Source of the DNA: Squalus acanthias
Lineage: Eukaryota
Assembly: GCA_030390025.1 (NCBI GenBank)
Contig: CM059431.1
Span: 125,924,001-125,988,000, forward strand
DNA: 64,000 nt
Direction of reading: 5' to 3'
Each line of letters begins with the position of its first letter. The stretch's first letter is position 1. The translations under genes and the position numbers were made by a program. Of the stretch, positions 1-55,520 are shown piece after piece. The notes under the pieces were generated by a model, which saw nothing but the letters and a program-made list of their open reading frames with translations, was not told where the DNA came from and did not search any database.

Positions 1-873
1 GGGTTTACTGACCGCGGCGGCACGTGGATCCTTCTTCTTTTCTCATCTCATCTCATCTCTTCGGGCCTTCGGTCCAGACACCGTTTACCGACCTTCGGGA
101 CGGTGCACCCGATTTCGCAGCGCGCCACGAGGTCGACCCCAAAAGGGATCAGTGGAACAAGAGAGAATAACGGTCATCTGGGATAAGAGCCAAAAGACGA
201 TTCCAAGCGAATGAAAAGGATAAGAGAGCGATGGACGTTTGGACACTACAGTTATAGTACTGTAATTCCTTATCTCCCGCCCAAACTTAATGTTCATCTT
301 TTGTCATGTTTTGGCGCTCAAACTTCTTGTATGGGGTGGTTCTTGTCGTTAATGGGTTTCGGTGATACTTGTAGCTGTCTAAGTACCCGTTAATATTTCT
401 CCCATTGTGGAACCAGCTAGGAGTCTCCCTGGAGGGGTTTTTGGGGGCCTCCGAATTCTTGCTGTGAGTACCTGCGAACGGCTCTCTCATCGTAGAGCCG
501 TGGGGAATTTGCGTATCAATGTCTTTGGATGGGCCCTTGATTGCTCAGTACAATAGCCCTCGTTTGTGTATGGAAAACCGATTCCAGCACTTATATTTCT
601 TGCTTAGGTGTCAAAAATGCAAAACGATCGCGTTTTGTCTTATATCAATGTATGCTGAGCATTGTCCGATCTTGCTGAAATGTTTATTTGAACGCCATCT
701 TGTCTGCCTACTGAAAGTCTAGAAACTTCTGCCATGAGGCGCGGCGGCCATTTTACAGGCTTCTTGTGTCCGTTTTGAAACCTGACAGCATTTTGCTGAA
801 ATAAAACTGTTTTAACGAATCTGTGTCTCTTTTTCTCGTTATTTCGAAATCGCGATAATTTGCGAATTCTACA
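1..873 (-). mobile_element. Diverged LTR (5' part) of the same family as the 32472-45295 provirus; runs off the left edge
   Basis: Reverse complement begins TGTAGAATTCGCAAATTATCGCGATTT versus TGTAGAATTCGCAATATATCGCGATTT at 32472. It shares collinear blocks (AAATGGCCGCCGC, AGACAAGATGGCGTT, CAAGGGCCCATCCAAAG, CCCTCCAGGGAGA, (GAGAT)n). The flank at 874 is CR1 tail, not a polypurine tract. Confidence 0.88.
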
Positions 874-30531: not shown

Positions 30532-30947
30532 TCTCTAGTTGTCCTGAGGGCATTAGGAAATATGGGGGGAGAAATTCAGCATGCTACCCCCTCCCATTAG
30601 CGCCTGGGGTGGCGCTAACGGGACGCTACTGGGTTTGTGGCGTGATGCGGCGAATCCAACGGCACACACAAAATTCATCTGAGGTTTAGCGCTGGCACTA
30701 ACAGTTAGCGCCTAGGCCTTTAGCGCCTGGCAGATCGTGACGTCAATGAGCTGTAGGAGCGGTATTTAAAGGGATCAACATCCGGTTTCATTTTAGTCAC
30801 CAATGAATGCTGCCTTTTCAGTTTCACATTAGGAAACAACCGTTTTCTGTGAGTTAAGCGTTTCTTACTGTCAGGAGTGTTCTGGCTGACAAAAATTTGT
30901 CACTTTCATTCTGCTAAGATTTCGAAGTCCCACATGTGGTTACGTTA

Positions 30948-31310
30948 ATGGGGGCTGTACTGGCACTCGACCTCACCCTTCGGCATCAACGTCGGATGCA
31001 GCGGAGGCAGAGACAAAGATTGGAAAATGTGGCCAGAGGGAGGAGGGCCAACAGGCCTTACCCTCTCAGTGTATTCCAGGAGAACTTCTCCTACATCAAT
31101 TTATCTGAGGAGCAGTGTCATGAAATGCTCTGCTTCAACAAGGAGGTGGTCACCGAACTCTGCCACCTCCTGCAGTCAGACCTCGAGCCTCAGATCAGGA
31201 CCACCACGGCTCTCTCACTGGCAGTCAAGGTCACCGTCGCCGTCAATTTCTTCACCAGCAGATCCTTCCAGTCTGTAGCAGGAGATATATCTAACATCTC
31301 GCAGTTCGCC
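30948..31310 (+). pseudogene. Harbinger (HARBI1-like) DDE transposase, N-terminal part
   Basis: LSEEQC..F.KEVVTELCHLL..ALSLAVKVTVAVNFF.S.SFQ..GDISNISQFA, cut by the LTR at 31311. Confidence 0.9.
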
Positions 31311-32471
31311 TGAACGGATAATTACTAGTCCTAGCCCCTTTAGGGCTACCCTGGATCAGGCGTATTCCCCAGACGTTCACTTTCAACTAAAGTTTGAGGT
31401 AACCGAATCCTAAAGACGCTTAATTGGGTCTGAAGGTCCAGACTATCTCTCCCTAAAGGAAAGGAACAACCTGAAGATGTTACCGTCCTCCAGATAGCAC
31501 TTTTAATAAGTTTAGCTAGACTCCCCCAGAATTCTGCAACTCCTCACCAAAGAGCGTACAGAGATTGAGTTTGTGAGTTTGATACAGAAGTATTACGTGA
31601 GACAATTCTAAAAATATATAGATTTATTAAAGAACCGACATGTAATTTACAGTTGGTGATTCAATCATAACATTAACAGTTCCAAAAACAGATATCTTTT
31701 ACAATCTTACTATCAGAGATCCTTATTCTCAAATCTTAACTTCGTTACATTTTTACAGTTCTCAGTCTTTATTCCAGGATATCCAGCAAAATCAAATACC
31801 TTTTCATACCTTTGATCCCCGAGGTACAAAAAGTTGTAGACTTACAGAGCTTGCCTCTGAAGACCGAGAATCGCTTTGCCCCTTTACAGCGAATCTGTCA
31901 TCCCACTTGAAAGTTCAATATTTATATCCTTTTTCAGTGGTATGTCCTTTGAAGTTTTCTGCTGATGTAAGCTAATTATCTCTAGTCATTTTTCTGCTGA
32001 CTTCTGCTATTCTTACAGTCAGTTCAGCTGGTAGCTTTAAGAATCGTGTTTCTACCTTTAGGTGTTCGAAGCTTATCATAAAAACGATGTGACAGCAGAT
32101 GCATCTATTTGATGTCATTCTTATCAAGGTCTTCTGTTTGTGTCTTTTTAAGATGTGTAAATTAAAAACACCTCAACCGGGTGCACCATTGTCTTCTCAG
32201 ATACCTCAGCTGGTTGTAATACAGAATCATGTCTCCTGTGTTTCATTTGATTTCATTTTTACGAAGGCATATGTTTCTTAATTTTCTGTGTTTCTTTCCA
32301 AAGTGTTGGTTTAAGACACCTTAACAGGGTGCACCATTGTGTTCTTTCCAAGGCTTCAGAATATCAGGAACCTCCAACCTCCTGTTTCAATAAGGTTATT
32401 GATTCAGTGTCAACAACTTATCCTATCTCAATAGCCTGTATGCTGTTTACAGCTTCTCCATTGTTAGGTTT

Positions 32472-34183
32472 TGTAGAATTCGCAATATATCGCGATTTGT
32501 TTAATAAGGAGAAAACACAAAGTTTCGTTCAAACAGCTTTTATTTCAGTAGAATGCTGTCAGGTTTAAATTGGACACAAGCAGCCTGTAAAATGGCCGCC
32601 GCACCTCGTGACAGAACATTCTAGACTTTTCAACAGGCAGACAAGATGGCGTTCCATCAAACGTTTTTTCAAGATCGATAACGATTCAGCACAGTGAAGA
32701 TAATACACGAGACATTATGGGTTTACAGTATAAACATAGATACTGAAATCGGTCTCCCAGGTACAAAGGAAAGCCATTGTATCGAGTAATCAAGGGCCCA
32801 TCCAAAGGACATTAATATGTAAACTCCCAACGACTCTACGATGAGAGAGCCGTTAGCAGGTAGTTATACAGGACACTTGGAAGCCCCAAACCCCTCCAGG
32901 GAGAACACCGACCGATTTAACAATGGGAGAAATATTAACAGGTACTCAAACATTCATGAGTAGCCCCGAAACCCATTAAGGACGGAGATCACCCATACAA
33001 GACATTTGGGCGCCAAACCCTAAACAAAAGAATGGACATTATAGTTGGGCGGGAAACGGAAGATTTTTGCACTATAATTGCAGGCCCCAAACCGTCCATT
33101 CGCTCTCTTGCCGCGCTTGCTCGCTTGCTGCTTTTATCATCGTGGCTGCTCCTGTGTTTTATCCGGTCGATTCGTAACCTCGTGGCTGCTCCTGTGTACT
33201 CGTAGTTGGGCTTCTGCGTGCCTGTTGCCTCTTCTGAAAAGACTGTTGAACTTTCTGATCCGTTCGGATCTACCTCGTGTCGCGTAACGAAGACCTATGT
33301 TGGTAACTGGCAGCGGAACCAAAGGCCCGAGATGAGATGAGATGAGATGAGAGGAGAAGAGAAGAAGACCATATCCATCGCCACGGTCAGTAAATCCCGA
33401 CCGCGCCTATAGGTCGATCAGCCAAGTTTTCTCGCCAGGAAGTTTTCTTCTTTAAACTTCTAACAAAACATATTGCATCAATGATAACTGGACTGTGCAA
33501 ACACATCGTATCAATGATATTGACAACGGTGCTCCAAGATTAAACTTTGAAGCCCACCAACAGAGGTCTTCACCACAGCGGACGGTCCAGCCTACTAGCC
33601 GGAGCAGCAGAAGCAAGTAAACAAGTGGGACCAGGAGATCTCCTGACCGACACGTGGGAGCTGCGGTGAAAAACATCCGATCAGCTATTCGGAATTTCTC
33701 CGAGTTATTACGAGTGGTGAGCATGAGTCTCGAGATCCTACGAAGCTAGTTTAGGATAGATATTGATAGGGGAGGGTTTAAAGATTAAGGATATTTGTAA
33801 TGTGTGCCCTATTTACGTTGTGCCGTTCGTTCCTCGTTTCCCTAAGATTGACTATAACCGTTTGTAAGATTGTACTGTCATTAATCTGTGCGTATGACAT
33901 GTATTTCATAATTTTAAGTATCATGCAATAAAGATTTTCCATTTCGTACCATTCAAACCAAGTCTACATGAGTTTTATCTCCATTACTGCTCTCGCATCT
34001 AAGTCCAGTGTCTAGAACCGTAAGGGAGAGTGATTCGAACCACTCACAGGTGTGTCTAGTGTTCCCAGACTGGCTGGAGACCAGAACAGGCAACCAGGCC
34101 TAGACCCGCACTGACATACAGGCTGCACAGAGCCGCGTGAATCTCACAGGCTGCGAGACACGCAGGGTCAGGAATCCCTTACA
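32472..34183 (+). repeat. 5' LTR (1712 bp)
   Basis: Direct repeat of 43584-45295. TATAAT near 33073, AATAAA at 33927, (GAGAT)n near 33330. Confidence 0.97.
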
Positions 34184-34187
34184 GAAA

Positions 34188-35999
34188 ATGGCGACCGCGG
34201 CAGGACACTGGCAGCGAGAGGGTAGTGTGTTAGATTTTGGAATGACTGTACGAAATGTTATGCAGGAAAAGATAGCGGATTATGTGTTTGGAAAGGTTAA
34301 TCTAACTAAAAAGTGGATAAGCGAATTGTTAGCGGATAAGAGCCCACTAGAGGCAGCTGAAAGATGGACTGATAGTAAGGAACATAAAAAGGCAGTTGAG
34401 AAAGCAGTCTGGCTTATGTGCTACAAAAGGCAGGTTCAGATTTCAAACCAGACCATTACAGCGCTAACAGCTCGTGTCAGCCATTTAGAGGGAGAAATGG
34501 AGGAGAAGGTTTCTGGAGGGGAGGTGCTCATTAAGAATTTAAATGAGTTACACCAGGAAAGCCAGGAAGTCTCTAGTTACCTTAAAACAAGGATAGAGTA
34601 TCTCGAGTGCCAGGTCACTGAAGCAAAATTGAATGAGAGTAGGATGAAGGAAAGATGTAACCGCCAAGCTGCCCAGATAAGAACTCAAGAAGAGAGCTTA
34701 ATGGGGGTTAGGTCGGCGTATAAGTTGGCCCTTGAGGATAAGTTTCAGGGAGCCGACCATAGCGCCTGCCAAAAAGAGATAGAGAGCCTCAAAAAGGCCG
34801 TGAATAATGCGAACGGCATGGTGTGCCTTATCAATCCGTCGGCGCGCCAGCCGCTAGTAAATGAGAGATTTAGAAATTCCCCACCAAGTAAAGCAGAAGA
34901 AGTAGTAGCCACTGCGCCCTCCGCGCCCCCCAGCTATTCAGAAACCTGGGTTAGGGAGGAAGCAACGGAAGAAACAAAAGAGCCCATTGAAAAGGAGGTA
35001 GAAAAGGGATCGTTGTATCCAGTAACGGGTATTAAAAGGGGCCCGAGCAGAAACGGTGGGGAAGAACCGGGGGATCTCCTCGGACAGCTGGTGTTGCCTC
35101 ACAGTTCACATCAGCTGAGGGCTATGATAAACCACGTAAGGAAGCTGACCGAGATAGACGACCCTTCCGTACATTTCAGGGAAGTTGAGCAAGCCGCAGC
35201 CATTAACGGCTGCGATGATGGGGAGACAGCAAAAATGCTGCTGTTCTCGTTAGACAGCTCGGTCCTTCAGTGTCTCTCAGGCGAGAGCAAGAGGGGAAAC
35301 AAAAGTTATGAGGAATTGAAAAATGAGGTCCTAGAAGTAGTGGGGGCGAACGACGGAGGTCCGTTTGCTAGAGTGGGACAGACAGTGCAGATGGAGGGAG
35401 AACCCCCGAAGGTTTTTGCCGACAGGCTGTGGCCAGTATATGAGCGCAGCTGTCTAGGTGCGCCCGAGCGCGAAGATGTGGAAGGCGCCGCTCTAATTCA
35501 TTGGCTTAGGTGCATAATAGCCAACAGTTTACCAGCCGTTAGAGAGCAGGCAAAAGCCTGGTTCGATCCCAATGACCTCAACCTTACGGAAGAGTCGGTC
35601 TTGAATCGACTCACGTTAGGTTACCGTAACATAAGGGGTATGACGACACGTCCCTTTAAGGGAAGAGTACATGAGGTACGACCCGCAGCCCCGGCTCAAA
35701 GAGAGTGGCATCAGGAGGGTAATCGCGCCCCACAGGCAAGTAATGCCTGTTACGGGTGTGGGAAGACAGGGCACTGGCGCAAGCACTGCAGGAACCCTTG
35801 GAAGGATTCCAAGGATAAAAATCCCGCGGTCCGAGCCCAGGCGCCTGTCCCGCCTAAGGAAGCAAAGGCACCCACCCCTCCCGACGACCTCGAAGCAGTG
35901 TTAGGAGCCATGCGCAAGATGGTTTTGAATGCGCGTGGACAGGTGGCGGTCGCAACCGGCCCCGTAGGTGCCGCAGGACCGTCTAATAGTGCCCCATGA
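34188..35999 (+). CDS. gag: Gag polyprotein (coiled-coil N-terminus, PSAPPSY late motif, capsid-like region, one CCHC knuckle)
   Basis: Open 603-codon frame from the first ATG after the LTR; CYGCGKTGHWRKHC. Actual start codon uncertain. Confidence 0.9.
   Translation: MATAAGHWQREGSVLDFGMTVRNVMQEKIADYVFGKVNLTKKWISELLADKSPLEAAERWTDSKEHKKAVEKAVWLMCYKRQVQISNQTITALTARVSHLEGEMEEKVSGGEVLIKNLNELHQESQEVSSYLKTRIEYLECQVTEAKLNESRMKERCNRQAAQIRTQEESLMGVRSAYKLALEDKFQGADHSACQKEIESLKKAVNNANGMVCLINPSARQPLVNERFRNSPPSKAEEVVATAPSAPPSYSETWVREEATEETKEPIEKEVEKGSLYPVTGIKRGPSRNGGEEPGDLLGQLVLPHSSHQLRAMINHVRKLTEIDDPSVHFREVEQAAAINGCDDGETAKMLLFSLDSSVLQCLSGESKRGNKSYEELKNEVLEVVGANDGGPFARVGQTVQMEGEPPKVFADRLWPVYERSCLGAPEREDVEGAALIHWLRCIIANSLPAVREQAKAWFDPNDLNLTEESVLNRLTLGYRNIRGMTTRPFKGRVHEVRPAAPAQREWHQEGNRAPQASNACYGCGKTGHWRKHCRNPWKDSKDKNPAVRAQAPVPPKEAKAPTPPDDLEAVLGAMRKMVLNARGQVAVATGPVGAAGPSNSAP
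34189..34206 (+). promoter_or_regulatory. Primer binding site, tRNA-Ser-like (imperfect)
   Basis: TGGCGACCGCGGCAGGAC lies 5 nt after the LTR; 13/18 match to TGGCGTAGTCGGCAGGAT (tRNA-Ser complement recalled from memory). Confidence 0.6.
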
Positions 36000-38900
36000 C
36001 TAGAACCAGCACAGCCCGTCTACCTGTGTCCGCTCAGCTATGATGCGTGGAGGCGACCTGTGGTGGAGATGGAGGTAGAGAAACAGAAGGGCAGTTATTT
36101 GTTGGACACGGGAGCTTCTTGCACCATAATCCATACAGATGACCCTTTTGACTCGCCGCTATCTACCAAGGTCCCATTCACGCTGGCAGGGTTCACAGGG
36201 AAAGAACAGGCTGGCACGTTTTCCCTCCCGCTATCCATTCGTTTAGGAACACTTCGCCTTAAGTGGAAGTGTATACTGATGGCATGGCAAAAGGGGGGTG
36301 GAAGAGGTATTCTCGGGTCCGATCTCCTAGCGGGACACGGGATCCTCGTGGACCTCAGAAATCACTGTCTCTGGGGGGCTAAAGGTGAAAAAGGCGAGGT
36401 AATGGTAATTCAAGGGGAGGAAGAAACAGGGGTCCTGTGTACCGTACAGCCATCCGGAGGCTACGACCTCAGGCTTATGGTCGCAGATGTCCCAACGGAC
36501 ATGCAAACGTACGTGTCAGATAATATGCACGCGTTTGCAACCCACAAGCACGATTGTGGGAGGGTGGTCGGGTTTGAGGTCAGCGTAGATGGGGACCCCA
36601 TGACCCGACCCCAAAAGCAGTATAACTTCCCCAAAGAAGCAGAACCCGATATGGAGACAGCAATGTCTTCCTTGGTGCAGCAGGGCGTGTTGAGGCCGAT
36701 AGCCACACACGTGAACTCCCCATTATGGCCGGTTAGGAAGCCGGATAATTCGTGGAGAGCCACGGTGGACTACAGAGTCCTTAACAGTAACATTCCCGCC
36801 TGCGCGCCCACAGTAGCAGCAGTTGCTGACCTAATAGGGAGCATCCCAGCGTCCGCGACCACGTTCACGGTGCTGGATATCTCGAACGGTTTTTGGTCCA
36901 TCCCGCTGCGGCGAGAGGACCAGTACAAGTTTGCCTTTACGTTTAAAGGGCAACAGTACACGTGGAACTGTTTGCCACAGGGTTTCCACAATAGCCCCAG
37001 TATTTTTCATCAGTGTATGGCAGGAAGTTTAAAGGAGTTTAGTCAGCCCAATCAGATAGTACAGTATGTGGATGATTTGCTCCTATTTACGGACTCAAGG
37101 GAGGAGCACGGACCACTACTGGACGAGTTATTGGAGCTGTTAGCGAGAAAGGGTTTTAAAGTAAACCCAAAGAAAGCACGTATCGGTCAGCAGGAAGTAA
37201 AATTCCTGGGACTGACCCTACGCGCTGGGGAAAGAGTCATAGACAAAGCAAGGAGGGAGTCGGTGCAAGAATTACCGATTCCCAACAACGTAAGGGGTGT
37301 GAGGTCCTTCTTGGGACTGACCGGTTACTGCAGGGATTTTATCGAAGATTATGCGGCCACAGCGGCGCCGCTCCTCCGACTCCTCCATAAGGGGGTGGAG
37401 TGGCTTTGGGACGAGGGCTGCCAAGCAGCCTTCGAGAAGTTAAAAAGGGATCTGCAGACCGCGCCAGCCTTAGGGGCCATAGATGGGGGGAAGGAGTTTT
37501 TCCTGGAGGTAGCTGCCAGCGGAGACAGCTTAAGCGCCGTGCTGCTCCAAGAGCGTCACGGCAAGCTGAGGCCGGTTGTCTATTCATCCAGGGTATTAAC
37601 GGATGTGGAGAGAAGTTTCTCCAATTGCAAAAGGCACCTTTTAGCCACGCATTGGGCTGTGAAAAGATCAGCGATCTTCACAGGGCTCTCTCCCATCACT
37701 CTCCTCACACATCACACACCAACTAAGATGCTTCTGGATGGGAGGATTAAAGACAGGACCGTAAGCAGCGCACGCATTGCGCGTTGGACCCTTCTTCTCT
37801 CCCAGTTGGATCTTAGAGTAAAAGGTCTTTGCGAGCCCAGGCTTGCGGCCAATTTGGTATACCCCGGTACAGCCCACCGGTGTTCGGTGGAAGGGGTGTG
37901 GGACGTCAACATAGGTTTATGGGCCGGGATACATCCCACTGGGCGCGAGATTTATGTTGATGGGTCTAGCACAGTGTCTGCTGGCGAGCGACTCACAGGG
38001 TGTGGAGTTTATGACCCTGCGGCAGACCTTGCCCTGGCGATCAAGCTCCCTAGCACCATGAGCGCGCAGCAGGCTGAGCTGTCTGCCGTGGTGTACGTGG
38101 TGACCCACCCAGACATTTTCCCAACCCCATACACGATTTGCTCGGACAGTATGTTCACCTGCAATTCGTGTACGGAATACCTGGCCATTTGGTCCCGCCG
38201 CGGATACACCTCCGCGGACGGGCGACCTTTAACGGTGAAGCCCTTGCTGGAAAAGATCTTAGCCGCAGCAGTAGGGGAGGAAGGGGAGATTTTCATCCAT
38301 AAGGTGAAAGCTCACTCCTCCACAGAGCCCCGTGGGGAGGGCAACCGGCAGGCGGATGCGCTAGCCAGGGAGGGTGCCCGCGACGGCACTTTCTGGAACC
38401 CCTATAGGACCGGACCCATAGCAGCGGTCCGAGGCGGGGACGGGAATACCGGGAACACCAGGGTAGCATTGCCCCTAGACCTTAAGACCGTCCAAGCCCA
38501 GGATCCCGCCCTAAAAGCAGTCCTAAAAACGATTGCTGAGGGGAGGCAGGTAGAAGGTCCGTACAGTACGGCAACCCTCTCAGTTAAGGAAGGCATGCTG
38601 TTCCGCGGGGAGCAGTGGGTTGTGCCGCAGCAGCACAGGAGGGAATTCCTCCAGTTGGCTCACGAGGGACCAGGGGCAGGGCACCCCGGGCCCGAGGTTA
38701 CCTGGCAACGGGTAGAGCAAGCGGGATGGTGGCCGGGGCTCAGGGAACAAGTCCGCGAGTTCTGTGCAAACTGTCTTGTGTGCGCTGCAAACAACCCAGA
38801 CCCCCAGAAAAGGAAGGTGCCCATGGGACACGTAAGAAGGGTAGAGGGACCATGGCAGTCGATACAGATCGACTATATAGGACCCCTGCCCACCACCCAG

Positions 38901-40523
38901 GGAGGTTATAAATACTGCCTCGTCCTGGTAGATGTGTTTTCCAAGTGGGTGGAAGCCTTCCCTTGTCGAACAGCTACGGCACTGGGTACAGCAAAAATCT
39001 TGGTCCGGGAAGTGTTCTCGCGGTGGGGACTCCCCCGTTTCGTGGAGTCAGACCAAGGGAGTCATTTCACCGGCCAGGTGATGCAGAACACCCTCATGCT
39101 TTTGGGCATTGAAGGGAAGTGGCACGTAGCGCACAATCCCCAGTCATCCGGGATTGTTGAACGTATGAACCGGACCCTGAAGGAGAAATTGAGGAAAGAG
39201 ACTAGGAACTCGCCCCAAAAATGGGCGGAAGTTCTGCCTTTAGTCCTCATGGGGGTCCGGGCCAGTCAGTCAAAAAGTACGGGGTACTCCCCGCACGAGG
39301 TAATGACCGGCAGGCTCATGCGAACCCCCACCCATGTGCTAGCCCCGGTGCTCACTGAGGGTCAGCTTCAAGAGATCAGCAGGGACAAGTTCGCCCAAAC
39401 TCTCTTGGAGCGCCTGAAGCAAGTTTATGAGCAGGCGGCTGGGAACATGGGAAGGCAGCATCAGGGCAATCGCTTGTTGCTGGAACCCCGCAAAACGCGG
39501 GAGTGGGAAGTAGGAGACCAGGTCATGGTCAGAAACTACGCCAGAGTAGGGAGTCTGGAACCACTGTATATGGGACCCTACAACATTGTAGACAAGGCGA
39601 GTCCCATGGTTTACGCCGTAAAGGTACCTCGGCGCACTAAGTGGTTCCACATAAACCAATGCAAACTGTACCAGCCGGGTGCGCAGGGGAAAACTACAGG
39701 GGTAAATCCCGCCAATGGGAAAACACAGCCCCAGGTAGGACCACAAGGCACACAGGCAGGCGTAGCAGCTTGCATCAGAGGAAGGGACATCCCGGACGAT
39801 CATGCAGCGTTTTTCTGGAGTTGGGGGTTGGATGACGAAGAACCCAGGGTACCCTGGTCAGATGAGGATAGTGCAGATGAGCATAGTGATGATGACGGGT
39901 GGTTCCTGAGGAACGGTCTGGGGGGAATGGGGCCGATAGGTAGAGATCCACACGGGGTGGACACACAAGCTGCAGGTCCCGACAACAGGAGGGAGGAGCT
40001 AGAGGAGGCAGGGCCAGCCGCTATAGGAGCACAGAGAGTACCAATGTGGTTCCCAGAGATGTGGCCGCCCGCTTTGAACGTCCAGTCCTCAGGGGAGGCA
40101 GAGATCACGAGTGAAGGGCCGCCTGCTGGGCCGAGCAGGGCGGAGCCACGAACTGCCAGCCCCGAGGTTAGGGAGGCGGAGTCAGCGGAGGCGGAGCCGG
40201 CGACTGTGATGGAACCCCAGGTCGTCCCGTTAGAGGTCTCGGAACCCGGTCCGTCCGTCACGGAACCCCCGCCCATAGCAACTCCCCGTAGGTCAAGTAG
40301 AGAACCCCAGCCCAGGAGGATGTGGTCATGTCCCCAGACTGCCCCAAGGCGTAAAATTCAGGTTAAGATAACCCGGGTAGAGACAGGCCACATCGCAGCA
40401 GTAACAGGCTGCGGCAGATCAGAGGAAAGGGTCAGCGCAGCAACAGGCTGCGGCAGATCAGAGGGAAGGGTCAGTGCCCTCCCACCGTCGGGAAGAGCTC
40501 GCAGCAGCCTTCTCAGAATTTAA
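36000..40523 (+). CDS. pol: Pol (protease, RT, tether, RNase H, integrase, C-terminal extension), in frame with gag past a single TGA
   Basis: LLDTGA; LPQGFHNSP and YVDD; degenerate RNase H-like tether; IYVDGSS..SAQQAEL..SDS..GNRQADALA; HHCC; QIDYIG..ESDQGSHF..GIVERMN; GPY. Confidence 0.96.
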   Translation, partial: LEPAQPVYLCPLSYDAWRRPVVEMEVEKQKGSYLLDTGASCTIIHTDDPFDSPLSTKVPFTLAGFTGKEQAGTFSLPLSIRLGTLRLKWKCILMAWQKGGGRGILGSDLLAGHGILVDLRNHCLWGAKGEKGEVMVIQGEEETGVLCTVQPSGGYDLRLMVADVPTDMQTYVSDNMHAFATHKHDCGRVVGFEVSVDGDPMTRPQKQYNFPKEAEPDMETAMSSLVQQGVLRPIATHVNSPLWPVRKPDNSWRATVDYRVLNSNIPACAPTVAAVADLIGSIPASATTFTVLDISNGFWSIPLRREDQYKFAFTFKGQQYTWNCLPQGFHNSPSIFHQCMAGSLKEFSQPNQIVQYVDDLLLFTDSREEHGPLLDELLELLARKGFKVNPKKARIGQQEVKFLGLTLRAGERVIDKARRESVQELPIPNNVRGVRSFLGLTGYCRDFIEDYAATAAPLLRLLHKGVEWLWDEGCQAAFEKLKRDLQTAPALGAIDGGKEFFLEVAASGDSLSAVLLQERHGKLRPVVYSSRVLTDVERSFSNCKRHLLATHWAVKRSAIFTGLSPITLLTHHTPTKMLLDGRIKDRTVSSARIARWTLLLSQLDLRVKGLCEPRLAANLVYPGTAHRCSVEGVWDVNIGLWAGIHPTGREIYVDGSSTVSAGERLTGCGVYDPAADLALAIKLPSTMSAQQAELSAVVYVVTHPDIFPTPYTICSDSMFTCNSCTEYLAIWSRRGYTSADGRPLTVKPLLEKILAAAVGEEGEIFIHKVKAHSSTEPRGEGNRQADALAREGARDGTFWNPYRTGPIAAVRGGDGNTGNTRVALPLDLKTVQAQDPALKAVLKTIAEGRQVEGPYSTATLSVKEGMLFRGEQWVVPQQHRREFLQLAHEGPGAGHPGPEVTWQRVEQAGWWPGLREQVREFCANCLVCAANNPDPQKRKVPMGHVRRVEGPWQSIQIDYIGPLPTTQGGYKYCLVLVDVFSKWVEAFPCRTATALGTAKILVREVFSRWGLPRFVESDQGSHFTGQVMQNTLMLLGIEGKWHVAHNPQSSGIVERMNRTLKEKLRKETRNSPQKWAEVLPLVLMGVRASQSKSTGYSPHEVMTGRLMRTPTHVLAPVLTEGQLQEISRDKFAQTLLERLKQVYEQAAGNMGRQHQGNRLLLEPRKTREWEVGDQVMVRNYARVGSLEPLYMGPYNIVDKASPMVYAVKVPRRTKWFHINQCKLYQPGAQGKTTGVNPANGKTQPQVGPQGTQAGVAACIRGRDIPDDHAAFFWSWGLDDEEPRVPWSDEDSADEHSDDDGWFLRNGLGGMGPIGRDPHGVDTQAAGPDNRREELEEAGPAAIGAQRVPMWFPEMWPPALNVQSSGEAEITSEGPPAGPSRAEPRTASPEVREAESAEAEPATVMEPQVVPLEVSEPGPSVTEPPPIATPRRSSREPQPRRMWSCPQTAPRRKIQVKITRVETGHIAAVTGCGRSEERVSAATGCGRSEGRVSALPPSGRARSSLLRI

Positions 40524-40809
40524 AGGGGCCGCCCTGAGAACGGGCGGCACTGTAAAGTTATTAGGTTAAGTTTTAAGTTTTAGTTCAAGGTTAAGTTTGT
40601 AGTTTTAATAAGGCTAAGTTTGTAGTGTTTTGAACAGAAAACGATAAAATGATGGGAGTTTTAAGGCTAGGTTTAGAGGAAGTCTATTCAGCAAAGGTTG
40701 AAGTTTACGTGAGGCGAGGTCAGGGGACCCGCTCACCCTTCACAACAGCCAGAGACCTTTTTGCGAGGCTGGCTACCTCATTCTATCTGATCACAGGAAC
40801 CAAGGAAGG

Positions 40810-43161
40810 ATGGAACGACTTCTAGTATTGCTCGTGGCAATCGGATGTGGATTGGCCTATCGAGGCCACACCAAGGATGTCGTGGTGTTTGGATGTTCCG
40901 GGGACACGGCCCCCATCGCGGTGGATGGGACCGGAAGACGGAAGGCAGAGGGGACCAGCACCTATTTCCACAAGGGAAGGTGGCCAGGATGGCTGGGAAC
41001 GAACTCAACGGAGTATTCCAGCACATCGGGGTTCGCCTACAAAGAGACTTCTTTAATGTGCCCCAAAGTACGGATCATCGCACCCAGGATCAGCGTCACC
41101 GTCGGCAAACGGATTTGTTTGACCTGTAGTGGGGATGTCCCATTGAGCCGATGGTGGTGGCTGCGAAAGCTGAGCAAAACTATGAGAAACTCTTCGGTCG
41201 AGTGGGAACGACTGGGTAATAATACCCATCGGACAATTACGGGGACAGACGGACAAGTGAAAGTCTGTTGGGACAAATGGTGGGAACCGGATGAGGGGAT
41301 TTATGTATGTATGTGGGGGTCAAAGTACGTTTGCCCCAAAGGCATCTCCATATTTTTTATTAATCAGTGGCAGGATAACGGACAGGGGATGAGGTGGGAT
41401 GCGAGCACCAGGGGGTGCGGAGCCCCATTCTCCCCGATCCCAGTAAATGCCACTGAACTCATTACGCGCCCACGCAAAGCCCCGCCCACGATTCCGGTGG
41501 TTCTAGCTGAGGAAGAAGGGTGCCCTAAAACTAGTAAGGGACCCGGGAACGGTTTGGTACTGGTCCCCACAGACCAGATACTATTTCAGGGGGTACATTA
41601 CGCGGTGGCCTCGGTGATTTTAAATCTCACTGAGGTACGGTTACCAGAGTGGTGCCCCAAAAAGACGGAACAGTTGTATCAGGTCCTGTTGACCAAGATG
41701 TTCAGACAATTTTACGAGTTTGATTTTGCAGAAATTGATAAGGCAAGTTTGTACACCGCACCGCAGGAAGTTTTGGATCAAGTAGGGAGGCAAAGAAGGG
41801 GTTTGGTGAACGATGCGTTCACTGCTTTTAACACAGGGACATCTGTGGTCAACGCTCTAGACAGTGTGGAGCTGCAGACCCAGATTAATGGTTTAAAAAC
41901 ACAGTTAAAAGACATTCTAACAGATGAGAATAAAGTGGTAGGGTCGGGTCTGCATGAGGACCAAGCCATGACTCTCCATTTAAAGGAAATTATAGCAGAG
42001 CTGGAGAAACATGCGCGTACGGTAAATGCCCTGATCAGGGAAGATCGGAATGCATCCGATCAAGCTGCGCAGAACGAGGTGTGCGTGCTTTACGGGGCGT
42101 GGTTACTGGGCGAGGGCCGCAGTAATTTGGAGGATTTAAAACAAGGTTTGGTTCCGTCCTGGATAAGTAACAAACACCTACGGGCGCTCCACCCTTTTCA
42201 GAACGCATTAAGTCCGTGCCAGCTCAGGCTAGCTTCGGAAGCTTACCCAGTCCCCGTGGACTGCGGACGTTCAAACCATACTATTATGGGAATAGTATTA
42301 CGCATGCCGGTTTTGGGCAACACAGCAAAGCCCGCCCCGGTATATCGGGTAGAGAACATTGGTGTCATTCAGGGGGGAGCCCACATTCGTTATGCAGCGG
42401 TTCCACCTTACGTCATCCGCTGGGAGCAAACGATGACAGGTACAGATCTCTCTGGTTGTCGTGGCAGGGGAGCACACATAATACTGTGCCCCCAGCACTT
42501 GAATGCCTTTTTAACACCACAGTGCGGGTTCAGAACGGCTGGCGCCAAGTCCATGAATTGCACCATGGAGGCAATGGCACAAGATCATGTGCCTCCGCAG
42601 GTAGCATACATCGGGGGTGGAACATATTGTGTTACCACTGCAGCGCAACACTACCAGCATGGAAACCGTAGCCGGTGTCCGGTGAGTGACAGCAGTTTCT
42701 GTTTTAAACCCAGGGCTGAAGTTCAAGTAGCACAACAGCGAATTATCCCAATCCCTGAACCATCCACTGTTCATCTCACAGTAAAAGAGAATTTCACCGA
42801 CTTGCAGCGATTTGTCGCACATTTTGGATACCTCATTCCCCCTCTCCCTGAGCATTTAACCAAACTTCTGAAAGCCGTCGCGGTATCACAGAAACATTTT
42901 TATACATTAGAACAGAAAACTGTCGAAATAGGAACAGACATTTTGGACATAGTGGTTCCACCGTGGTGGAATCTGTTCACCAATATTGAAGTGCCTTCAT
43001 GGATCCGAATAGCCTCCCACATTTTAGTCGTCTGTCAAGTGTTTATTGTAGTGTACCTATTGTTCATACATTGTAAAAGAGACAAGCGCCTCACCAAGCA
43101 TGAAAACACGGGAGAGTGGCGAGAACGTTACGTGCGCGTGCACGATGAGAGCACCGTGTAA
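40810..43161 (+). CDS. env: Envelope glycoprotein, 783 aa: signal peptide, Ig-like segment, furin site, F-protein-like fusion subunit, TM anchor
   Basis: MERLLVLLVAIGCGLA signal; RQRR|GLVNDAFTAF; heptad repeat; Cys-rich region; ILVVCQVFIVVYLLFI TM; N-glycosylation sequons; upstream acceptor-like TTCTATCTGATCACAG ending at 40796. Confidence 0.9.
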   Translation: MERLLVLLVAIGCGLAYRGHTKDVVVFGCSGDTAPIAVDGTGRRKAEGTSTYFHKGRWPGWLGTNSTEYSSTSGFAYKETSLMCPKVRIIAPRISVTVGKRICLTCSGDVPLSRWWWLRKLSKTMRNSSVEWERLGNNTHRTITGTDGQVKVCWDKWWEPDEGIYVCMWGSKYVCPKGISIFFINQWQDNGQGMRWDASTRGCGAPFSPIPVNATELITRPRKAPPTIPVVLAEEEGCPKTSKGPGNGLVLVPTDQILFQGVHYAVASVILNLTEVRLPEWCPKKTEQLYQVLLTKMFRQFYEFDFAEIDKASLYTAPQEVLDQVGRQRRGLVNDAFTAFNTGTSVVNALDSVELQTQINGLKTQLKDILTDENKVVGSGLHEDQAMTLHLKEIIAELEKHARTVNALIREDRNASDQAAQNEVCVLYGAWLLGEGRSNLEDLKQGLVPSWISNKHLRALHPFQNALSPCQLRLASEAYPVPVDCGRSNHTIMGIVLRMPVLGNTAKPAPVYRVENIGVIQGGAHIRYAAVPPYVIRWEQTMTGTDLSGCRGRGAHIILCPQHLNAFLTPQCGFRTAGAKSMNCTMEAMAQDHVPPQVAYIGGGTYCVTTAAQHYQHGNRSRCPVSDSSFCFKPRAEVQVAQQRIIPIPEPSTVHLTVKENFTDLQRFVAHFGYLIPPLPEHLTKLLKAVAVSQKHFYTLEQKTVEIGTDILDIVVPPWWNLFTNIEVPSWIRIASHILVVCQVFIVVYLLFIHCKRDKRLTKHENTGEWRERYVRVHDESTV

Positions 43162-43583
43162 TAGGAAAATGGCGTCACTCCCGCTCGCCGCGTGCGCCGC
43201 GGAAGTTTGTACTCATTGTAAATACGTTGGAAACTCGACATGTTTAAGAGTTAGGATTTGTTTATTTTGGTGATGGTGTTGATTGTTTGGTTTTGGGTTT
43301 TGTTTTTCCTTTCCCTGAATAAAAGACAAATATACAGGTGATGCGTGAGGTATCGGCCTGGTTACGCCGGGAAGGAAAACAAGTGGTGTAAGTTTAAGGG
43401 CAAATGATGCCTACGGTGATATAAAATGTGATTTTCTTGGGAAATAAGGACGACACAGAGACCCTAGTTAAGTTAAAATTTATGGGATTAATTTACTGGA
43501 TTCGGAGTGAAATCGAGATAAGATTGCTCACCACTGTGATTTTTGATACGATAAGCGGAGTTATTCGCATCAACAGGAGGGAC

Positions 43584-45295
43584 TGTAGAATTCGCAATAT
43601 ATCGCGATTTGTTTAATAAGGAGAAAACACAAAGTTTCGTTCAAACAGCTTTTATTTCAGTAGAATGCTGTCAGGTTTAAATTGGACACAAGCAGCCTGT
43701 AAAATGGCCGCCGCACCTCGTGACAGAACATTCTAGACTTTTCAACAGGCAGACAAGATGGCGTTCCATCAAACGTTTTTTCAAGATCGATAACGATTCA
43801 GCACAGTGAAGATAATACACGAGACATTATGGGTTTACAGTATAAACATAGATACTGAAATCGGTCTCCCAGGTACAAAGGAAAGCCATTGTACCGAGTA
43901 ATCAAGGGCCCATCCAAAGGACATTAATATGTAAACTCCCAACGACTCTACGATGAGAGAGCCGTTAGCAGGTAGTTATACAGGACACTTGGAAGCCCCA
44001 AACCCCTCCAGGGAGAACACCGACCGATTTAACAATGGGAGAAATATTAACAGGTACTCAAACATTCATGAGTAGCCCCGAAACCCATTAAGGACGGAGA
44101 TCACCCATACAAGACATTTGGGCGCCAAACCCTAAACAAAAGAATGGACATTATAGTTGGGCGGGAAACGGAAGATTTTTGCACTATAATTGCAGGCCCC
44201 AAACCGTCCATTCGCTCTCTTGCCGCGCTTGCTCGCTTGCTGCTTTTATCATCGTGGCTGCTCCTGTGTTTTATCCGGTCGATTCGTAACCTCGTGGCTG
44301 CTCCTGTGTACTCGTAGTTGGGCTTCTGCGTGCCTGTTGCCTCTTCTGAAAAGACTGTTGAACTTTCTGATCCGTTCGGATCTACCTCGTGTCGCGTAAC
44401 GAAGACCTATGTTGGTAACTGGCAGCGGAACCAAAGGCCCGAGATGAGATGAGATGAGATGAGAGGAGAAGAGAAGAAGACCATATCCATCGCCACGGTC
44501 AGTAAATCCCGACCGCGCCTATAGGTCGATCAGCCAAGTTTTCTCGCCAGGAAGTTTTCTTCTTTAAACTTCTAACAAAACATATTGCATCAATGATAAC
44601 TGGACTGTGCAAACACATCGTATCAATGATATTGACAACGGTGCTCCAAGATTAAACTTTGAAGCCCACCAACAGAGGTCTTCACCACAGCGGACGGTCC
44701 AGCCTACTAGCCGGAGCAGCAGAAGCAAGTAAACAAGTGGGACCAGGAGATCTCCTGACCGACACGTGGGAGCTGCGGTGAAAAACATCCGATCAGCTAT
44801 TCGGAATTTCTCCGAGTTATTACGAGTGGTGAGCATGAGTCTCGAGATCCTACGAAGCTAGTTTAGGATAGATATTGATAGGGGAGGGTTTAAAGATTAA
44901 GGATATTTGTAATGTGTGCCCTATTTACGTTGTGCCGTTCGTTCCTCGTTTCCCTAAGATTGACTATAACCGTTTGTAAGATTGTACTGTCATTAATCTG
45001 TGCGTATGACATGTATTTCATAATTTTAAGTATCATGCAATAAAGATTTTCCATTTCGTACCATTCAAACCAAGTCTACATGAGTTTTATCTCCATTACT
45101 GCTCTCGCATCTAAGTCCAGTGTCTAGAACCGTAAGGGAGAGTGATTCGAACCACTCACAGGTGTGTCTAGTGTTCCCAGACTGGCTGGAGACCAGAACA
45201 GGCAACCAGGCCTAGACCCGCACTGACATACAGGCTGCACAGAGCCGCGTGAATCTCACAGGCTGCGAGACACGCAGGGTCAGGAATCCCTTACA
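43584..45295 (+). repeat. 3' LTR (1712 bp)
   Basis: Same length as the 5' LTR; one substitution found by eye (T32782 / C43894). Confidence 0.97.
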
Positions 45296-45666
45296 GTTTT
45301 TAGATTTTCAATCCCAGTTTGTCATGTTACAATAAGGCCAGAATTATTTCAGAGAATGGTGTATTTTTCTGAATATGGCTTATTCCTTCACACAACCCTC
45401 TTGACCAAGAAATGAACTCGAGCATTGAGTCAATGTTACTAATAAGGTTACAATAGCACATTAATTTCATGAAATTCACAAAAGCCTAATCATGTGCTAC
45501 ATGAAAATTCCTTTTAAGTCATCCTAGGACAATGTTTTGCCTTATTTTAAATTGAACACAATTTAAAAGGATGACAGGTACATTGTCATGCAATTACAAA
45601 ACAACATGTACTTAGAATGTCCAATCGGCAGATGTACGTTCTGTAGAGGTGAGTTATTCATATGAG

Positions 45667-46014
45667 TCAAGGAGACGTCATTTGGAAGTAGCTGAAGCTT
45701 GACACGCTGTTCCTTCGATCCAGCGTGTGGACACATTCTTGTTTTCGTAAAGGCCTTGCCAGGCGCTCAGTTGATTCCATCTTCATCCGCGGTGTTTTCC
45801 TCCTTCGTTGAAGTAACTTGTTGATCTTTCTTTGTTTCGGTTGTGGCTTTTCGCGAATCCAATTCCTGAGGCGTTGCCAAGCATCGTGTGGAGGAGTCGG
45901 CGACACCGTCTGACTGACCGTCGTCAGTAGTTCGATCGCATCCATTTCCTGTGTCGTGCTCCAAGCTGGGTCTTGAAAGACAGTGTACAACTGCACCTTG
46001 TATTGTTCCTCCAT
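45667..46014 (-). pseudogene. Possible env leader remnant of the foamy-like provirus
   Basis: ATG-initiated ORF overlapping the pol 3' end where env would start. No recognisable motif; under 300 bp remain before the LTR. Confidence 0.35.
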
Positions 46015-48943
46015 TCCGGTATCCCGCAGGACATCTTTTGAGATTGTCTATGGAGACAGTTTTAAGAATATGCTTGCCATTCGGCTGATTAATATGTATT
46101 TTAACTGTTCTTTTGTTAATAACAGTATGTATTTGAACAGGTTTTTTCCACTTTGGTTTTAAACCAGGTTTTTGCTCAAACTTCTTTTCCTGTACCCATT
46201 CTCCTACTAGGGGTTGCCATGCTTTGTTTGTCAATTTTTTCTGCCTATTTGCCTCCCTTATCCTCTGATCAATTTGATGAATCTCCTCTGTTATTTCTTT
46301 TTTTAAATCTAACTGTCGCTGTCGGGTCAAGGACTCAGAGAGTGCAGAGGCAATAAAAGAACTATGGGTATGCGGTGTATGCATCTCAACCCCATACATC
46401 AGATAATATGAAGTTTTAGGGGACACTGTCCCTGATGCAGATGCGGGCACATTATTAAGTGATAGCTGCACCTCTGGAATGACGGTGGTCCACTTATTTC
46501 CCCTGATTCTCAACAGTTTGACCAATAGCTTTTTTACTTCCTGGTTTTTACGTTCCACCAGCCCCGCTGATTGCGGATGACGTGGCGTGCTGTGCTCTAA
46601 CCCAATCCCCCTTTGTTCGCAGTAGTCTTTGAAGACCTTGGAGACAAAGGCTCCGTCTTTAACAGAGTGTAAGATTTTGGGTGCACCAGCTACAGTAATT
46701 ATGTCAGTAATAGCATTGGCGAGTTCGTTTTCCGAAACAGTTTTTGTGGGGACCAGCCAGCAGAAGGAAGTGCATCCATCTACACAAACGAGAACATATC
46801 TGTATCCAAAAGACGGGGGAAGTGGTCCAATAAAGTCAATAAAGAATTTTCCCATTGGCTCTTCAGCTTTCACAGGAGCCAATGGTGGTAGCTTAATTAG
46901 TGATGATTTATTGATTAAATAGCATGGCTCACAATTTGCCACGTATGTTTTACAGGCCTTAAGCATGCCTGGCCATCAATATAAGGGGGTCAATTTGCAG
47001 AATGTTGTTCTGGCACCACAATGTGCTAGACCTATGCCCTCGTGAGCTTCTTTTACAAGCTGTTCTCGTTTGTGTCTCGGGGGTACTTCTCTGTTTTCCT
47101 TGGGCAACTTAACTAGCACAATACCAGTAGGGATTTCCGAATAAAAGTACTTTGGTGGATATCCTGGTGGATTCTCTTTTGTTGGGTCTAATAGCTGAAT
47201 CAGTTCCTCATCCTGATTAGCTGCCCGTTCTGCCCTAGTGATTACACTAATATTGGCAGGCCTCTCTTGAGGGGATGTCATGCAGACCGAACGTTTCACT
47301 TGTTCATCTGCAAGACTGTTTCCTTTTGAGTGTACTGTCCCAGTGGTATGCCCGTTTACATGAAACACCTGAAAATTCTGTTTCTCCATTCTCGAACGGA
47401 GAATGTCTTCCCACAATGACTTATGTTTTATGGGTTTACCCTTATGATTGGTAAAATTTGTTTGTTCTCAGAAAACTAGATCTTGGTTATATCCTCTTTT
47501 ACAGTAGTCACTATCCGTACAGATTAGTGTGGGTTTAATAGGGTCTGCCTTTTCTAAAGCATACCATAATGCTGCAGCTTCAGCATATTGTGCTGTCTTA
47601 TGGCCAAGGGGTATGGACAGTAATTCTTCTGGATAAAAAGAATAGGAATCTCGAAAAGTCCCTACTACTATCCCCATGCCAACTGAGGATTGTTGGGATG
47701 TCCCTTTTTTAATCGTCATTGAAGATCCATCGCAGTAAATGACTTGATGGTATTCTGTAAGCGGTCTCACAGGCATTTGTCTGATTCCCTCCTCCGTATC
47801 ATCATCCTCCTATGATGGGGAGATGCTCTAAGTCCATTTCCGGGGAGAGGAATTTAAAAATGAGTGTAGGATCATTCAAGAATGATGCCCATTTATCATA
47901 TTGGATCTGGGTGGCTCTTTTTTATGTTGATTAAATACCCAGCTGTTGTAAGTCTGGATAAAACACTATCAATGGCTTTCAAGTGTTCTTGGAGATTGTC
48001 ATGTGACAGATATATGTCGTCCACATAAGAATTGACGTTAGGTAGGTCTTTTAAAAGGTCAATGATGTGGGCTGAAAAGAGAACGGGACTGTTTTGAAAT
48101 CCCTGGGGCAATCTGGTCCAGCAGTGCTGATGGCCATCGGGTCCAGTCATCACTGTTTTTGGCCAATTAGCTTTTTCGATTGGATGTGACCAGAAGCTGT
48201 TTGCCAGATCAATACAAGATTTATATTTTTTCCTCGTGATTCCAGAGAAGGGCTGTGGAATTTTGCTGTTGTGCAGTATGTGGGGCCATTACCCTAGTTA
48301 AGGCTATATAATCGACCACTAATCGCCACCTCCCATCTGGTTTAGCAACACCAAACAATGGTGAATTAGTTCTAGATGACATTTTGAATAAGACACCTTG
48401 TTCTGTTAGTTCTTTGAGCGTTGTTAGCAGATCTATTTTTCCTTTGTGGTCTTGAATAGGCCACTGTTTTTTAGGTTTGTGCCAGCCAGCATCAAATGGG
48501 TGGGGTTTGATGTCTATCTTTCCACATTGATTTGGATGGCGTTGTAGATACGGGTAGTATCTATTAATTAGTTGCTCGAGGAGGTCTTTGCCTCCCCCCG
48601 CTAGGCAAGTTCGATCAAGCTGTGTCCGAACATGTTTTTCCCTGTCATCCTGGTCTGTGGATGCTTCTACAGGTCTGGTTGAGATTTTAAGGTACTGTTT
48701 CATGTCTGGTTGTCTTATAATGAGGGAACAGGTCAATTGTGGTACCAGTCCTACATCTAGGGTCACCGTGATTCCATATATGGTAATAGGTATTTTGTAA
48801 AAATTAATTATTTTGGTTTTGTCTTGTGTGAATCCCCCTAATGGTCTTTTACAAATTGGGCTCCCCAAATCTGTCCACTTAGTTTTTATAATTGCAAGAT
48901 CTATTACAGTGTAATCAGCTCCAGTATCAAACAGGGCCTTCAC
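45767..48943 (-). pseudogene. pol: Foamy-like pol (protease, RT, RNase H, integrase) with stops, frameshifts and an internal deletion
   Basis: LFDTGA; KPDGRWRLVVDY; CWTRLPQGFQNSP; YVDDIYLSHD; YCDGSS..GMGIV..IPLGHKTAQYAE; NQDEELIQLL..GYPPKY; KFFIDFIGPLPPS.GY.YVLV; HPQSAGLVERKN. Confidence 0.93.
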
Positions 48944-53800: not shown

Positions 53801-55516
53801 CAGATCTCTGAAGGTTGCCACTCAAGTGGATAGAGCAGTAAAGAAGGCCTATGGTGTGTTGGCGTTTATTAACAGAGGGTTTGAGTTTAAGAACCGTGAG
53901 GTTATGCTGCAACTGTACAGGACCTTGGTGAGACCACATTTGGAATATTGTGTGCAGTTCTGGTCACCTCACTATAGGAAGGACGTGGAAGCATTGGAAA
54001 GAGTGCAAAGGAGATTTACCAGGATGCTGCCTGGTTTGGGGGGGGAGGTCTTATGAGGAAAGATTGAGGGAGTTGGGGCTTTTCTCTTTAGAGCGGAGGA
54101 GGATGAGAGGCGACTTAATAGAGGTTTATAAGATGATGAGGGGGATAGATAGAGTGGATGTTCAGAGACTATTTCCTCGGGTAGAGGCAGCTGTTACAAG
54201 GGGGCATAACTATAAGGTGCATGGGGGGAGATATAGAAGGGATGTCCGAGGTAGATTCTTTACTCAGAGAGTGGTTGGGATGTGGAATGGACTGCCTGCT
54301 GTGATAGTGGAGTCGGACACTTTAGGAACTTTCAAGCGGTTATTGGATAAGCACATGGAGCACACCAGAGTGATAGGGAGTGTGATAGCTTGATCTTGGT
54401 CTCGGACAATGCTCGGCACAACATCGAGGGCCGAAGGGCCTGTACTGTGCTGTACTGTTCTATGTTTCTATGTAACTCCCCCAGAATTCTGCTACTCCTC
54501 ACTAAAGAGTGTACAGAGATTGAGTTTGCGAGTTTGATACAGAAGTATTATGTGAGACAATTCTAAAAATATATAGATTTATTAAAGAACCGACATGTAA
54601 TTTACAGTTGGTGATTCAATCGCAACATTAACAGTTCCAAAAACAGAAATCTTTTACAATCTTATTATCAGAGATCCTTATTCTCAAATCTTAACTTTGT
54701 TACATTTTACAGTTCCCAGTCTTTATTCCAGGATATCCACCAAAATCAAATACCTTTGATACCTTTGATCCCCGAGGTACAAAAAGTTGTAGACTTACAG
54801 AGCTTGCCTCTGAAGCCTGAGAATCGCTTTGCCCCTTTACAGCGAATCTATCATCCCATTTGAAAGTTCAATATTTATACCCTTTTTCAGTGGTATGTCC
54901 TTTGAAGTTTTCTGCTGATGTAAGCTAATTATCTCTAGTCATTTTTCTGCTGACTTCTGCTATTCTTACAGTCAGTTCAGCTGGTAGCTTTAAGAATTGT
55001 GTCTCTACCTTTAGGTGTTCGAAGCTTATCATAGAAATGGTGTGACAGCAGATGCATCTATTTGATGTCATTCTTACCAAGGTCTTCTGTTTGTGTCTTT
55101 TTATGATGTGTCAATTAAAAACACCTCAACCGGGTGCACCATTGTCTTCTTAGTTACCTCAGCTGGTTGCAACACAGAATCGTATCTCCTGTGTTTCATT
55201 TGATGTCATTTTTACGAAGGCATATGTTTCTTAATTTTCTGTGTTTCTTTCTGAAGTGTTGGTTTAAGACACCTTAACAGGGTGTACCATTGTGTTCTTT
55301 GCAAGGCTTCAGTCTATCAGGAACATGCAACCTCCTGTTTCAATAAGGTTATTGATTCAGTGTCAACAACTTATCCTATCTCAATAGCCTGTATGCTGTT
55401 TACAGCTTCTCCATTGTTAGGTTTTTAGATTTTCAAGCCCAGTTTGTCATGTTACAATAAGGCCAGAATTATTTATAGAATGATGTATTTTTCTGAATAT
55501 GGCTTATTCCTTCACA
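50853..55516 (-). repeat. Foamy-like 5' LTR, split by a CR1
   Basis: Matches the 3' LTR with 14 mismatches in the first 212 bp counted by eye. TATAAA at 54879-54874, GTAAGT at 54798-54793. Confidence 0.92.
51065..54474 (+). mobile_element. Young 5'-truncated CR1 LINE (ORF1 esterase C-terminus; ORF2 with a stop and a frameshift)
   Basis: [64 protein letters not shown] tail; possible ACT duplication. Confidence 0.95.
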
Positions 55517-55520
55517 CACC

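Follow-up and report, generated by a model that had tools for sequence, protein, structure and literature searches.

A high-copy provirus in Squalus acanthias is probably an early-branching retrovirus with an F-type envelope, and not a lokiretrovirus

The snakehead retrovirus (SnRV) belongs to the SnRV clade, or clade Huo, which includes lineage I of the elephant-shark endogenous retroviruses (CmiERVs; PMC12193657, PMC6001957, PMC4422223), and the CmiERVs are dated at 54-75 Myr (PMC4422223). Lokiretroviruses combine a gag-pol-env plan with a tether, a second RNase H and an F-like envelope protein (Env) bearing an RxxR site (PMC7947760), and foamy virus Env has also been published as F-like (PMC11468914). 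On how retroviral Env originated, Wang and Han leave four scenarios undecided (PMC7947760). Six cartilaginous-fish genomes stand without a presence mark in their Table S2; one skate and one catshark are starred in the genome table of the invading endogenous retroviruses (412 elements in the set; Wang and Han 2023, PMC10435555). Here, we analyse a provirus at positions 32472-45295 of a stretch of 64,000 nucleotides from Squalus acanthias (contig CM059431.1, positions 125,924,001 to 125,988,000; hereafter the window), which an initial annotation had described as a very recent, lokiretrovirus-like insertion. We are fairly confident that it is an early-branching true retrovirus, part of a basal grade with SnRV and endogenous retroviruses (ERVs) of amphibians and coelacanth and not a lokiretrovirus, and that it is one of thousands of likely young copies that likely multiplied by repeated infection with an F-type envelope.

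The phylogenies of the reverse transcriptase (RT) carry this placement. The references were SnRV (locus L021, taken as SnRV partly by its RT), walleye dermal sarcoma virus (WDSV; locus L055), foamy, gamma and alpha/beta viruses, and three Loki-type loci picked by the published Loki motif. In the RT tree (37 of 72 rows, reduced for speed), a split with 98/99 support separates Loki and Gypsy from the query, SnRV, foamy viruses and orthoretroviruses, and a quick mixture-model tree of all 72 rows agrees (SH-aLRT branch support 97). The tree of RT plus tether (32 rows) has the same split (99/98) and rejects a grouping of the query with Loki (approximately unbiased [AU] test, p=0.0008). The RT phylogeny that the initial annotation had proposed as a check thus leaves the query outside Gypsy, and puts it on the Retroviridae side instead of with the lokiretroviruses. 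The best-scoring named RT is that of SnRV (216 bits, 42% over 290 aa), ahead of Loki (156 bits). The RT carries PQG; at this place each of the 24 published Loki RTs reads PFG (PMC7947760 supplement), and within the part of that supplement that was searched PQGFH occurs in SnRV only. The distance from the protease to YxDD is 320 aa, close to SnRV (313) and WDSV (303) and far from Loki (712). Gag has a single zinc knuckle, and in profile comparison it matches SnRV at 88% and Loki at 0.7%. The Loki motif was also searched in viral contigs and was absent.

The other traits of Retroviridae are present as well: the LTR-gag-pol-env-LTR plan (LTR, long terminal repeat), a dual RNase H and a tRNA primer site. 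Pfam orders Pol as protease, RT, RNase H-like tether, second RNase H and integrase, which confirms, together with the complete set of catalytic motifs, the retroviral architecture that the initial annotation had recognised. This arrangement is common to all retroviruses, so it does not diagnose Loki. Among database Pol sequences, the closest come from frogs, coelacanth and sea turtles (35-44%) and are annotated only as host proteins, under the label 'NYNRIN-like'; one unnamed protein reaches 87%. Two of the unnamed Pol proteins (P0012 and P0014) form the first branches on the retrovirus side of the RT plus tether tree (81/93 for the rest). Three other affiliations were considered. Ty3/Gypsy (Metaviridae) conflicts with the RT tree and with the second, catalytically complete RNase H, and Spumaretrovirinae with a foamy clade (100/100) that excludes the query RT and with a pol that shares the gag frame, unlike the separate spumaretroviral Pol. 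ERV3/ERV-L and ERV4, which have a 5-bp target duplication and a Gag without zinc knuckle (PMC4299795 Table 1), are disfavoured by the 4-bp duplication (32 of 35 copies) and the Gag knuckle, with neither group represented in the trees.

Compared with the two nearest described systems, the provirus shows a mixture of features. It shares with SnRV PQGFH, the short protease-RT spacing, an in-frame gag-pol stop, an arginine-type primer site, a coiled-coil Gag with one knuckle and a homologous Env core. It differs from SnRV in its stop context (UGA-CUAG instead of UAG-GGC), the absence of a leader between primer site and gag, a 1.7-kb LTR, a short Env tail, a different integrase and the lack of a detectable 3' accessory gene: after env there is no plus-strand open reading frame longer than 57 codons, and none that matches the SnRV 3' frame. 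Its likenesses to Loki include, besides the overall plan, a similar integrase and, in a comparison made here, the UGA-CUA junction. Unlike Loki, it lacks the 400-aa insert between protease and RT and has an extra Env arm of 240 aa.

Several results weigh against the placement outside Loki and beside SnRV. With RT alone, grouping the query with Loki is not rejected (AU p=0.06), and the sister relation to SnRV collapses into a basal polytomy in which a group with SnRV is not rejected (p=0.37). For the integrase, a sister relation of query and SnRV is rejected (p=0.016), and Loki scores higher than SnRV (205 vs 127 bits). The match between the Gag proteins of the window and SnRV falls in the coiled coil, Loki has the nearest Env and shares the UGA-CUA junction, and the Env model has a pTM of 0.54. 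Loki was represented in the trees by just three references, chosen by motif, and ERV-L, ERV4, Odin and CmiERV were absent, which limits how precisely the virus can be named. The rival of a divergent lokiretrovirus, which would be the first in a cartilaginous fish, would account for the RT-only test, the nearer integrase, an Env profile that is best with Loki Env and a junction in common with two Loki-type loci. It is nevertheless very unlikely given the rejection with RT plus tether, PQG instead of PFG, the missing protease-RT insert, a knuckle-bearing Gag unlike that of Loki, and an Env without the PF00523 match seen in Loki. A recombinant that joined SnRV-type gag, protease and RT to a Loki-derived integrase and env would explain why RT and Gag favour one virus and integrase and Env the other, and domain replacement is known in retroviruses (PMC7947760). 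But the integrase tree is a polytomy without a clade with Loki (CGIN1 lay outside the sampling), the Env is only 19% identical to Loki Env, and the amphibian and coelacanth relatives carry the same mix, for which shared ancestry is simpler. We regard recombination as unlikely. The early-branching retrovirus thus remains our preferred reading, and its position within Retroviridae, as judged from these sequences, appears to be an unresolved basal grade; the RNase H tree gives no resolved placement for the query.

The F-like nature of Env, which the initial annotation had proposed, is upheld by the predicted structure. The model of the ectodomain (pLDDT 71) matches F of human parainfluenza virus 3 in Foldseek (E 6.5e-12), and in VIA it aligns with F of Newcastle disease virus (Z 12.0, rmsd 10.0, 385 residues) and with foamy Env (Z 8.8), unrelated rows staying below 5; walleye virus Env models are likewise among the matches. 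The predicted core therefore resembles the class Ib proteins, i.e., foamy Env and paramyxo/pneumovirus F (PMC11468914), from which the window Env differs in having its extra module N-terminal and not internal, in its cleavable signal peptide and in coming with an RT distant from that of foamy viruses. Searches of PDB sequences and Pfam with the window Env gave nothing significant and no PF00523, a family that one Loki-type Env matches at E 0.002. The profile of the Env family links it to Loki (98.7%), WDSV (96.2%) and SnRV (95.0%), weakly to foamy viruses (61.7%) and not to gamma (1.4%) or beta viruses (0.3%). Because the profile is common to Loki, SnRV, WDSV and foamy viruses, an F-like Env is not diagnostic of Loki, and 'tether + F-like env' is insufficient for a lokiretrovirus call. 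Judged by profiles and models, F-type Env is widespread among basal retroviruses and hence no Loki marker, and the pattern speaks for a common ancestor that had an F-type envelope.

Relatives of Env occur in skate (75%), sawshark, houndshark, bamboo shark, frogs and coelacanth; those of the skate and sharks, with a skate Gag at 50%, are unnamed and annotated only as host proteins. Their presence in skate and sharks supports the cartilaginous-fish host suggested initially, which is thus probable. The N-terminal arm of Env is poorly modelled (pLDDT 45), and its best Foldseek rows are immunoglobulin (Ig) V domains (E 0.003-0.015); it is probably Ig-like, on weak evidence from models. It does not match the N terminus of SnRV Env (0.2%). 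Env carries 10 N-glycosylation sequons. It would probably be made from spliced RNA, would be cleaved at RQRR and, as a class Ib fusogen, would fuse membranes; attachment may be the role of the Ig-like arm. In 11 of 35 copies, env has an open frame that extends upstream by another 52-53 codons (835-836 aa; region 40649-40810); in the window copy, the upstream ATGs of this region fall in another frame.

The provirus does not stand alone; its family has thousands of copies. Exact matches in the 3.7-Gb genome, which are lower bounds, number 2,475 for the LTR-primer-gag junction, 2,878 for the junction of polypurine tract and LTR, and 1,404 for an RT 23-mer, with 0 for controls. The family comprises roughly 2,500-2,900 proviruses, about half without pol. 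We inspected 36 copies and measured 35 (20 full length, 15 short); one env-picked copy, whose retrieved sequence contained no 5' LTR, and locus L128 were left out. The copies were picked by exact motifs, which biases them to young ones. Their LTR pairs differ at 68 of 59,010 bases, with no substitution in 12 of 35 copies and at most one in 24, and LTR length ranges from 1,487 to 2,093 bp among copies. Of the 20 full-length copies, 13 have gag, pol and env all open (7 of 14 without picking by env similarity). An assembly collapse is unlikely to be the source of the LTR identity, because pairs are near-identical within copies while LTR lengths differ between them, and because each of 32 among the 35 is flanked by a 4-bp target duplication of its own. 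These copies also bear out the view of a young, recently active family.

The short copies have one common loss, from protease to integrase, and keep gag, env and, mostly in frame, the Pol tail. In this subfamily (L117-L127 and others, G000:C1), the internal region is about 6.05 kb, a coiled-coil insert of about 110 codons, mostly in frame with the Pol tail, replaces protease to integrase, and a frame of 370-397 codons after the gag stop is kept in 13 of 15 copies. Such gag+env copies would be mobilised in trans by those bearing pol. Among shared variants, the ratio of nonsynonymous to synonymous polymorphism (pN/pS) is 0.03 in the Env core (14 full-length and 11 pol-less copies alike), 0.02-0.04 in RT and integrase, 0.2 in gag and 0.84-1.06 in the Pol tail; for singleton variants it is 0.08-0.3. 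By these ratios gag, pol and env show purifying selection, which is strong in the case of env.

When env is under selection as a family spreads, this is usually a sign of reinfection, and the low pN/pS of the Env core therefore indicates that the family likely spread by infecting cells. Germ-cell retrotransposition, with env intact merely because the burst was recent, would agree with the very high copy number and the many non-autonomous copies. It is hard to reconcile with 9 nonsynonymous against 95 synonymous shared variants in the Env core while the Pol tail is neutral in the same copies, and with the lack of any env deletion among the 35 measured copies (although these were picked by exact motifs); we consider it quite unlikely. 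One reservation about spread by infection is that selection on env may reflect an exogenous phase that has ended. There is close to an even chance that the family no longer exists as an infectious agent, with copies of up to a few Myr that look new through slow DNA change in sharks, a scenario compatible with the ancestry and past mechanism proposed here. With the shark rate that Han 2015 assumed (2.2e-10 per year; PMC4422223), the single LTR difference corresponds to 1.3 Myr (0.03-7.4), and with a mammalian rate to 0.13 Myr; at 7e-10 per generation, it corresponds to about 4e5 generations. The difference may instead have arisen by miscopying during insertion. Extinction fits less well with the substitution-free LTRs, with singletons still under selection, which leaves little room for accumulated neutral decay, and with the paucity of solo LTRs (78 LTR-end matches among the first 100 listed have a partner). 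The few solo LTRs and the selected singletons suggest youth. For the 'very recent' of the initial annotation, the bounds are loose, the host being slow to evolve. Tentatively, and with somewhat less than even confidence, we propose that the retrovirus still circulates in elasmobranchs and belongs to a lineage of Retroviridae that branched early, has no name and retains an ancestral kit of F-type (class Ib) Env, UGA-CUA readthrough and Loki-like integrase.

More than half of the sampled words of the provirus are present in 20 sequencing runs, which come from ten studies and cover six coded organisms, and near-identical elements therefore occur beyond one sample. In the runs of organisms E and F, the provirus is covered at 98-99% and the flanks little, from which we claim no cross-species transfer. 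Because the flank is repeated in many copies, empty-site joints in the runs carry no information. The contigs of eight runs showed neither a splice joint nor a transcript start, and no RNA run was among those listed. Already known were shark ERVs related to SnRV, an F-like Env in both Loki and foamy viruses, and, from cartilaginous fish, invading ERVs (intact proviruses whose LTRs are identical, a likeness with this family; PMC10435555). We found no published description of this family or of an F-like Env in SnRV or epsilon viruses, and none of the combination, the scale or the Env link across basal lineages; subscription journals and Repbase lay outside the search. In sharks, the basal lineage was earlier described only from fragments dating back 50-75 Myr, per the literature consulted. 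The family provides hundreds of natural copies, apparently unbroken, of this poorly known lineage, and an example of a large and recent invasion of the germline in hosts that mutate very slowly.

The features of the provirus (Table 1) suggest how it would be expressed. A single LTR transcript would be primed by tRNA-Arg(TCG): the same spacer and primer site occur in 35 of 35 copies, and a longer pattern including the tRNA arm has 422 exact matches in the genome, both scanned loci containing tRNA-Arg(TCG) genes. Such genes lie in long tandem arrays of tRNA genes (1,623-bp unit) at G000:C26:38.99-42.2 Mb. The ATG of gag, in strong context, shares the first two bases of the primer site, with this junction in 35 of 35 copies; there is therefore no leader between the two. 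We infer that Gag would start at this ATG, and a skate Gag relative (P0233) likewise begins MAT. Packaging and splice signals would then sit in the long LTR or in gag. Gag consists of an N-terminal coiled coil, a capsid-like region and one CX2CX4HX4C knuckle. Pol would likely arise by readthrough of UGA-CUAG; UGACUA is a type II readthrough context known in alphaviruses, and the same review lists SnRV, WDSV, the swim bladder sarcoma virus of salmon (SSSV) and two ERVs with other contexts (PMC13517186). The TGA-CTA hexamer likewise stands in frame at the gag-pol junction of two Loki-type metagenome-contig loci (L024 and L025), and we saw no description of it in the available portion of PMC7947760.

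Table 1. Features of the provirus, with positions in the window.
Feature	Position	Strand	Details
Left target-site duplication	32468..32471	.	GTTT; single in uninterrupted paralogous flank
5' LTR	32472..34183	+	1,712 bp, TG...CA ends
gag	34188..35999	+	603 aa, stop-free, ends TGA
Primer binding site	34189..34206	+	18 nt, 5-nt spacer after LTR; complements 3' end of host tRNA-Arg(TCG)
gag-pol stop	35997..36003	+	in-frame TGA-CTAG; present in 33/33 full-gag copies
pol	36000..40523	+	1,507 aa, gag frame, stop-free; protease (DTG), RT (PQG, YVDD), tether, RNase H, integrase, tail
Tether	37407..37805	+	Ty3-type RNase H-like, first catalytic aspartate absent; Pfam PF17919/PF17917
Second RNase H	37947..38378	+	catalytic motifs complete; Pfam PF00075 E 1.9e-19
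Integrase	38622..39671	+	HHCC, D-D-E, SH3; Pfam and motifs
Pol tail	39720..40520	+	270 aa, acidic, proline-rich; near-neutral
env	40810..43161	+	783 aa, stop-free; signal peptide, N-terminal arm, F-like fusion core
Ig-like domain candidate	41071..41310	+	Env N-terminal arm; Pfam Ig_3 E 0.58
RQRR cleavage site	41788-41799	+	sequence motif
Env transmembrane helix	about 43009-43065	+	
Polypurine tract	43572..43583	+	short, adjoins 3' LTR
3' LTR	43584..45295	+	1,712 bp, TG...CA ends
Right target-site duplication	45296..45299	.	GTTT

The provirus is intact, as first described, and its LTRs differ at one position (T32782/C43894). The integrase would produce 4-bp target duplications, and the GTTT at both ends is a true one because a copy of the flanking host repeat without insertion (about 55385-55460) has GTTT once. 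The repeat is present in multiple copies, spans 31310-32471 and 45296-45394 around the provirus, and has an uninterrupted paralogue 10 kb downstream (54475-55518). CpG is undepleted in the provirus (observed/expected 0.66-0.90, with 0.90 in the 5' LTR) relative to the flanks (0.42-0.45). The LTR has a single TATAAA, at LTR position 258, and an AATAAA at 1456, which would give an R region of about 1.2 kb. A frame at 30918-31313, which looks Harbinger-like, had no match in Pfam. At the start of the window (1-873, minus strand), an older relative of the LTR, truncated by the window start, is 76-80% identical to LTR positions 1-926. A search for viral relatives with the broken RT next to the provirus gave no match. 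That RT (with YVDD) belongs, with an RNase H and an integrase with SH3_11, to the pol of another retrovirus on the minus strand (45667-48288), which lies in at least four frames, in line with the decay noted initially, and looks foamy-like by eye.

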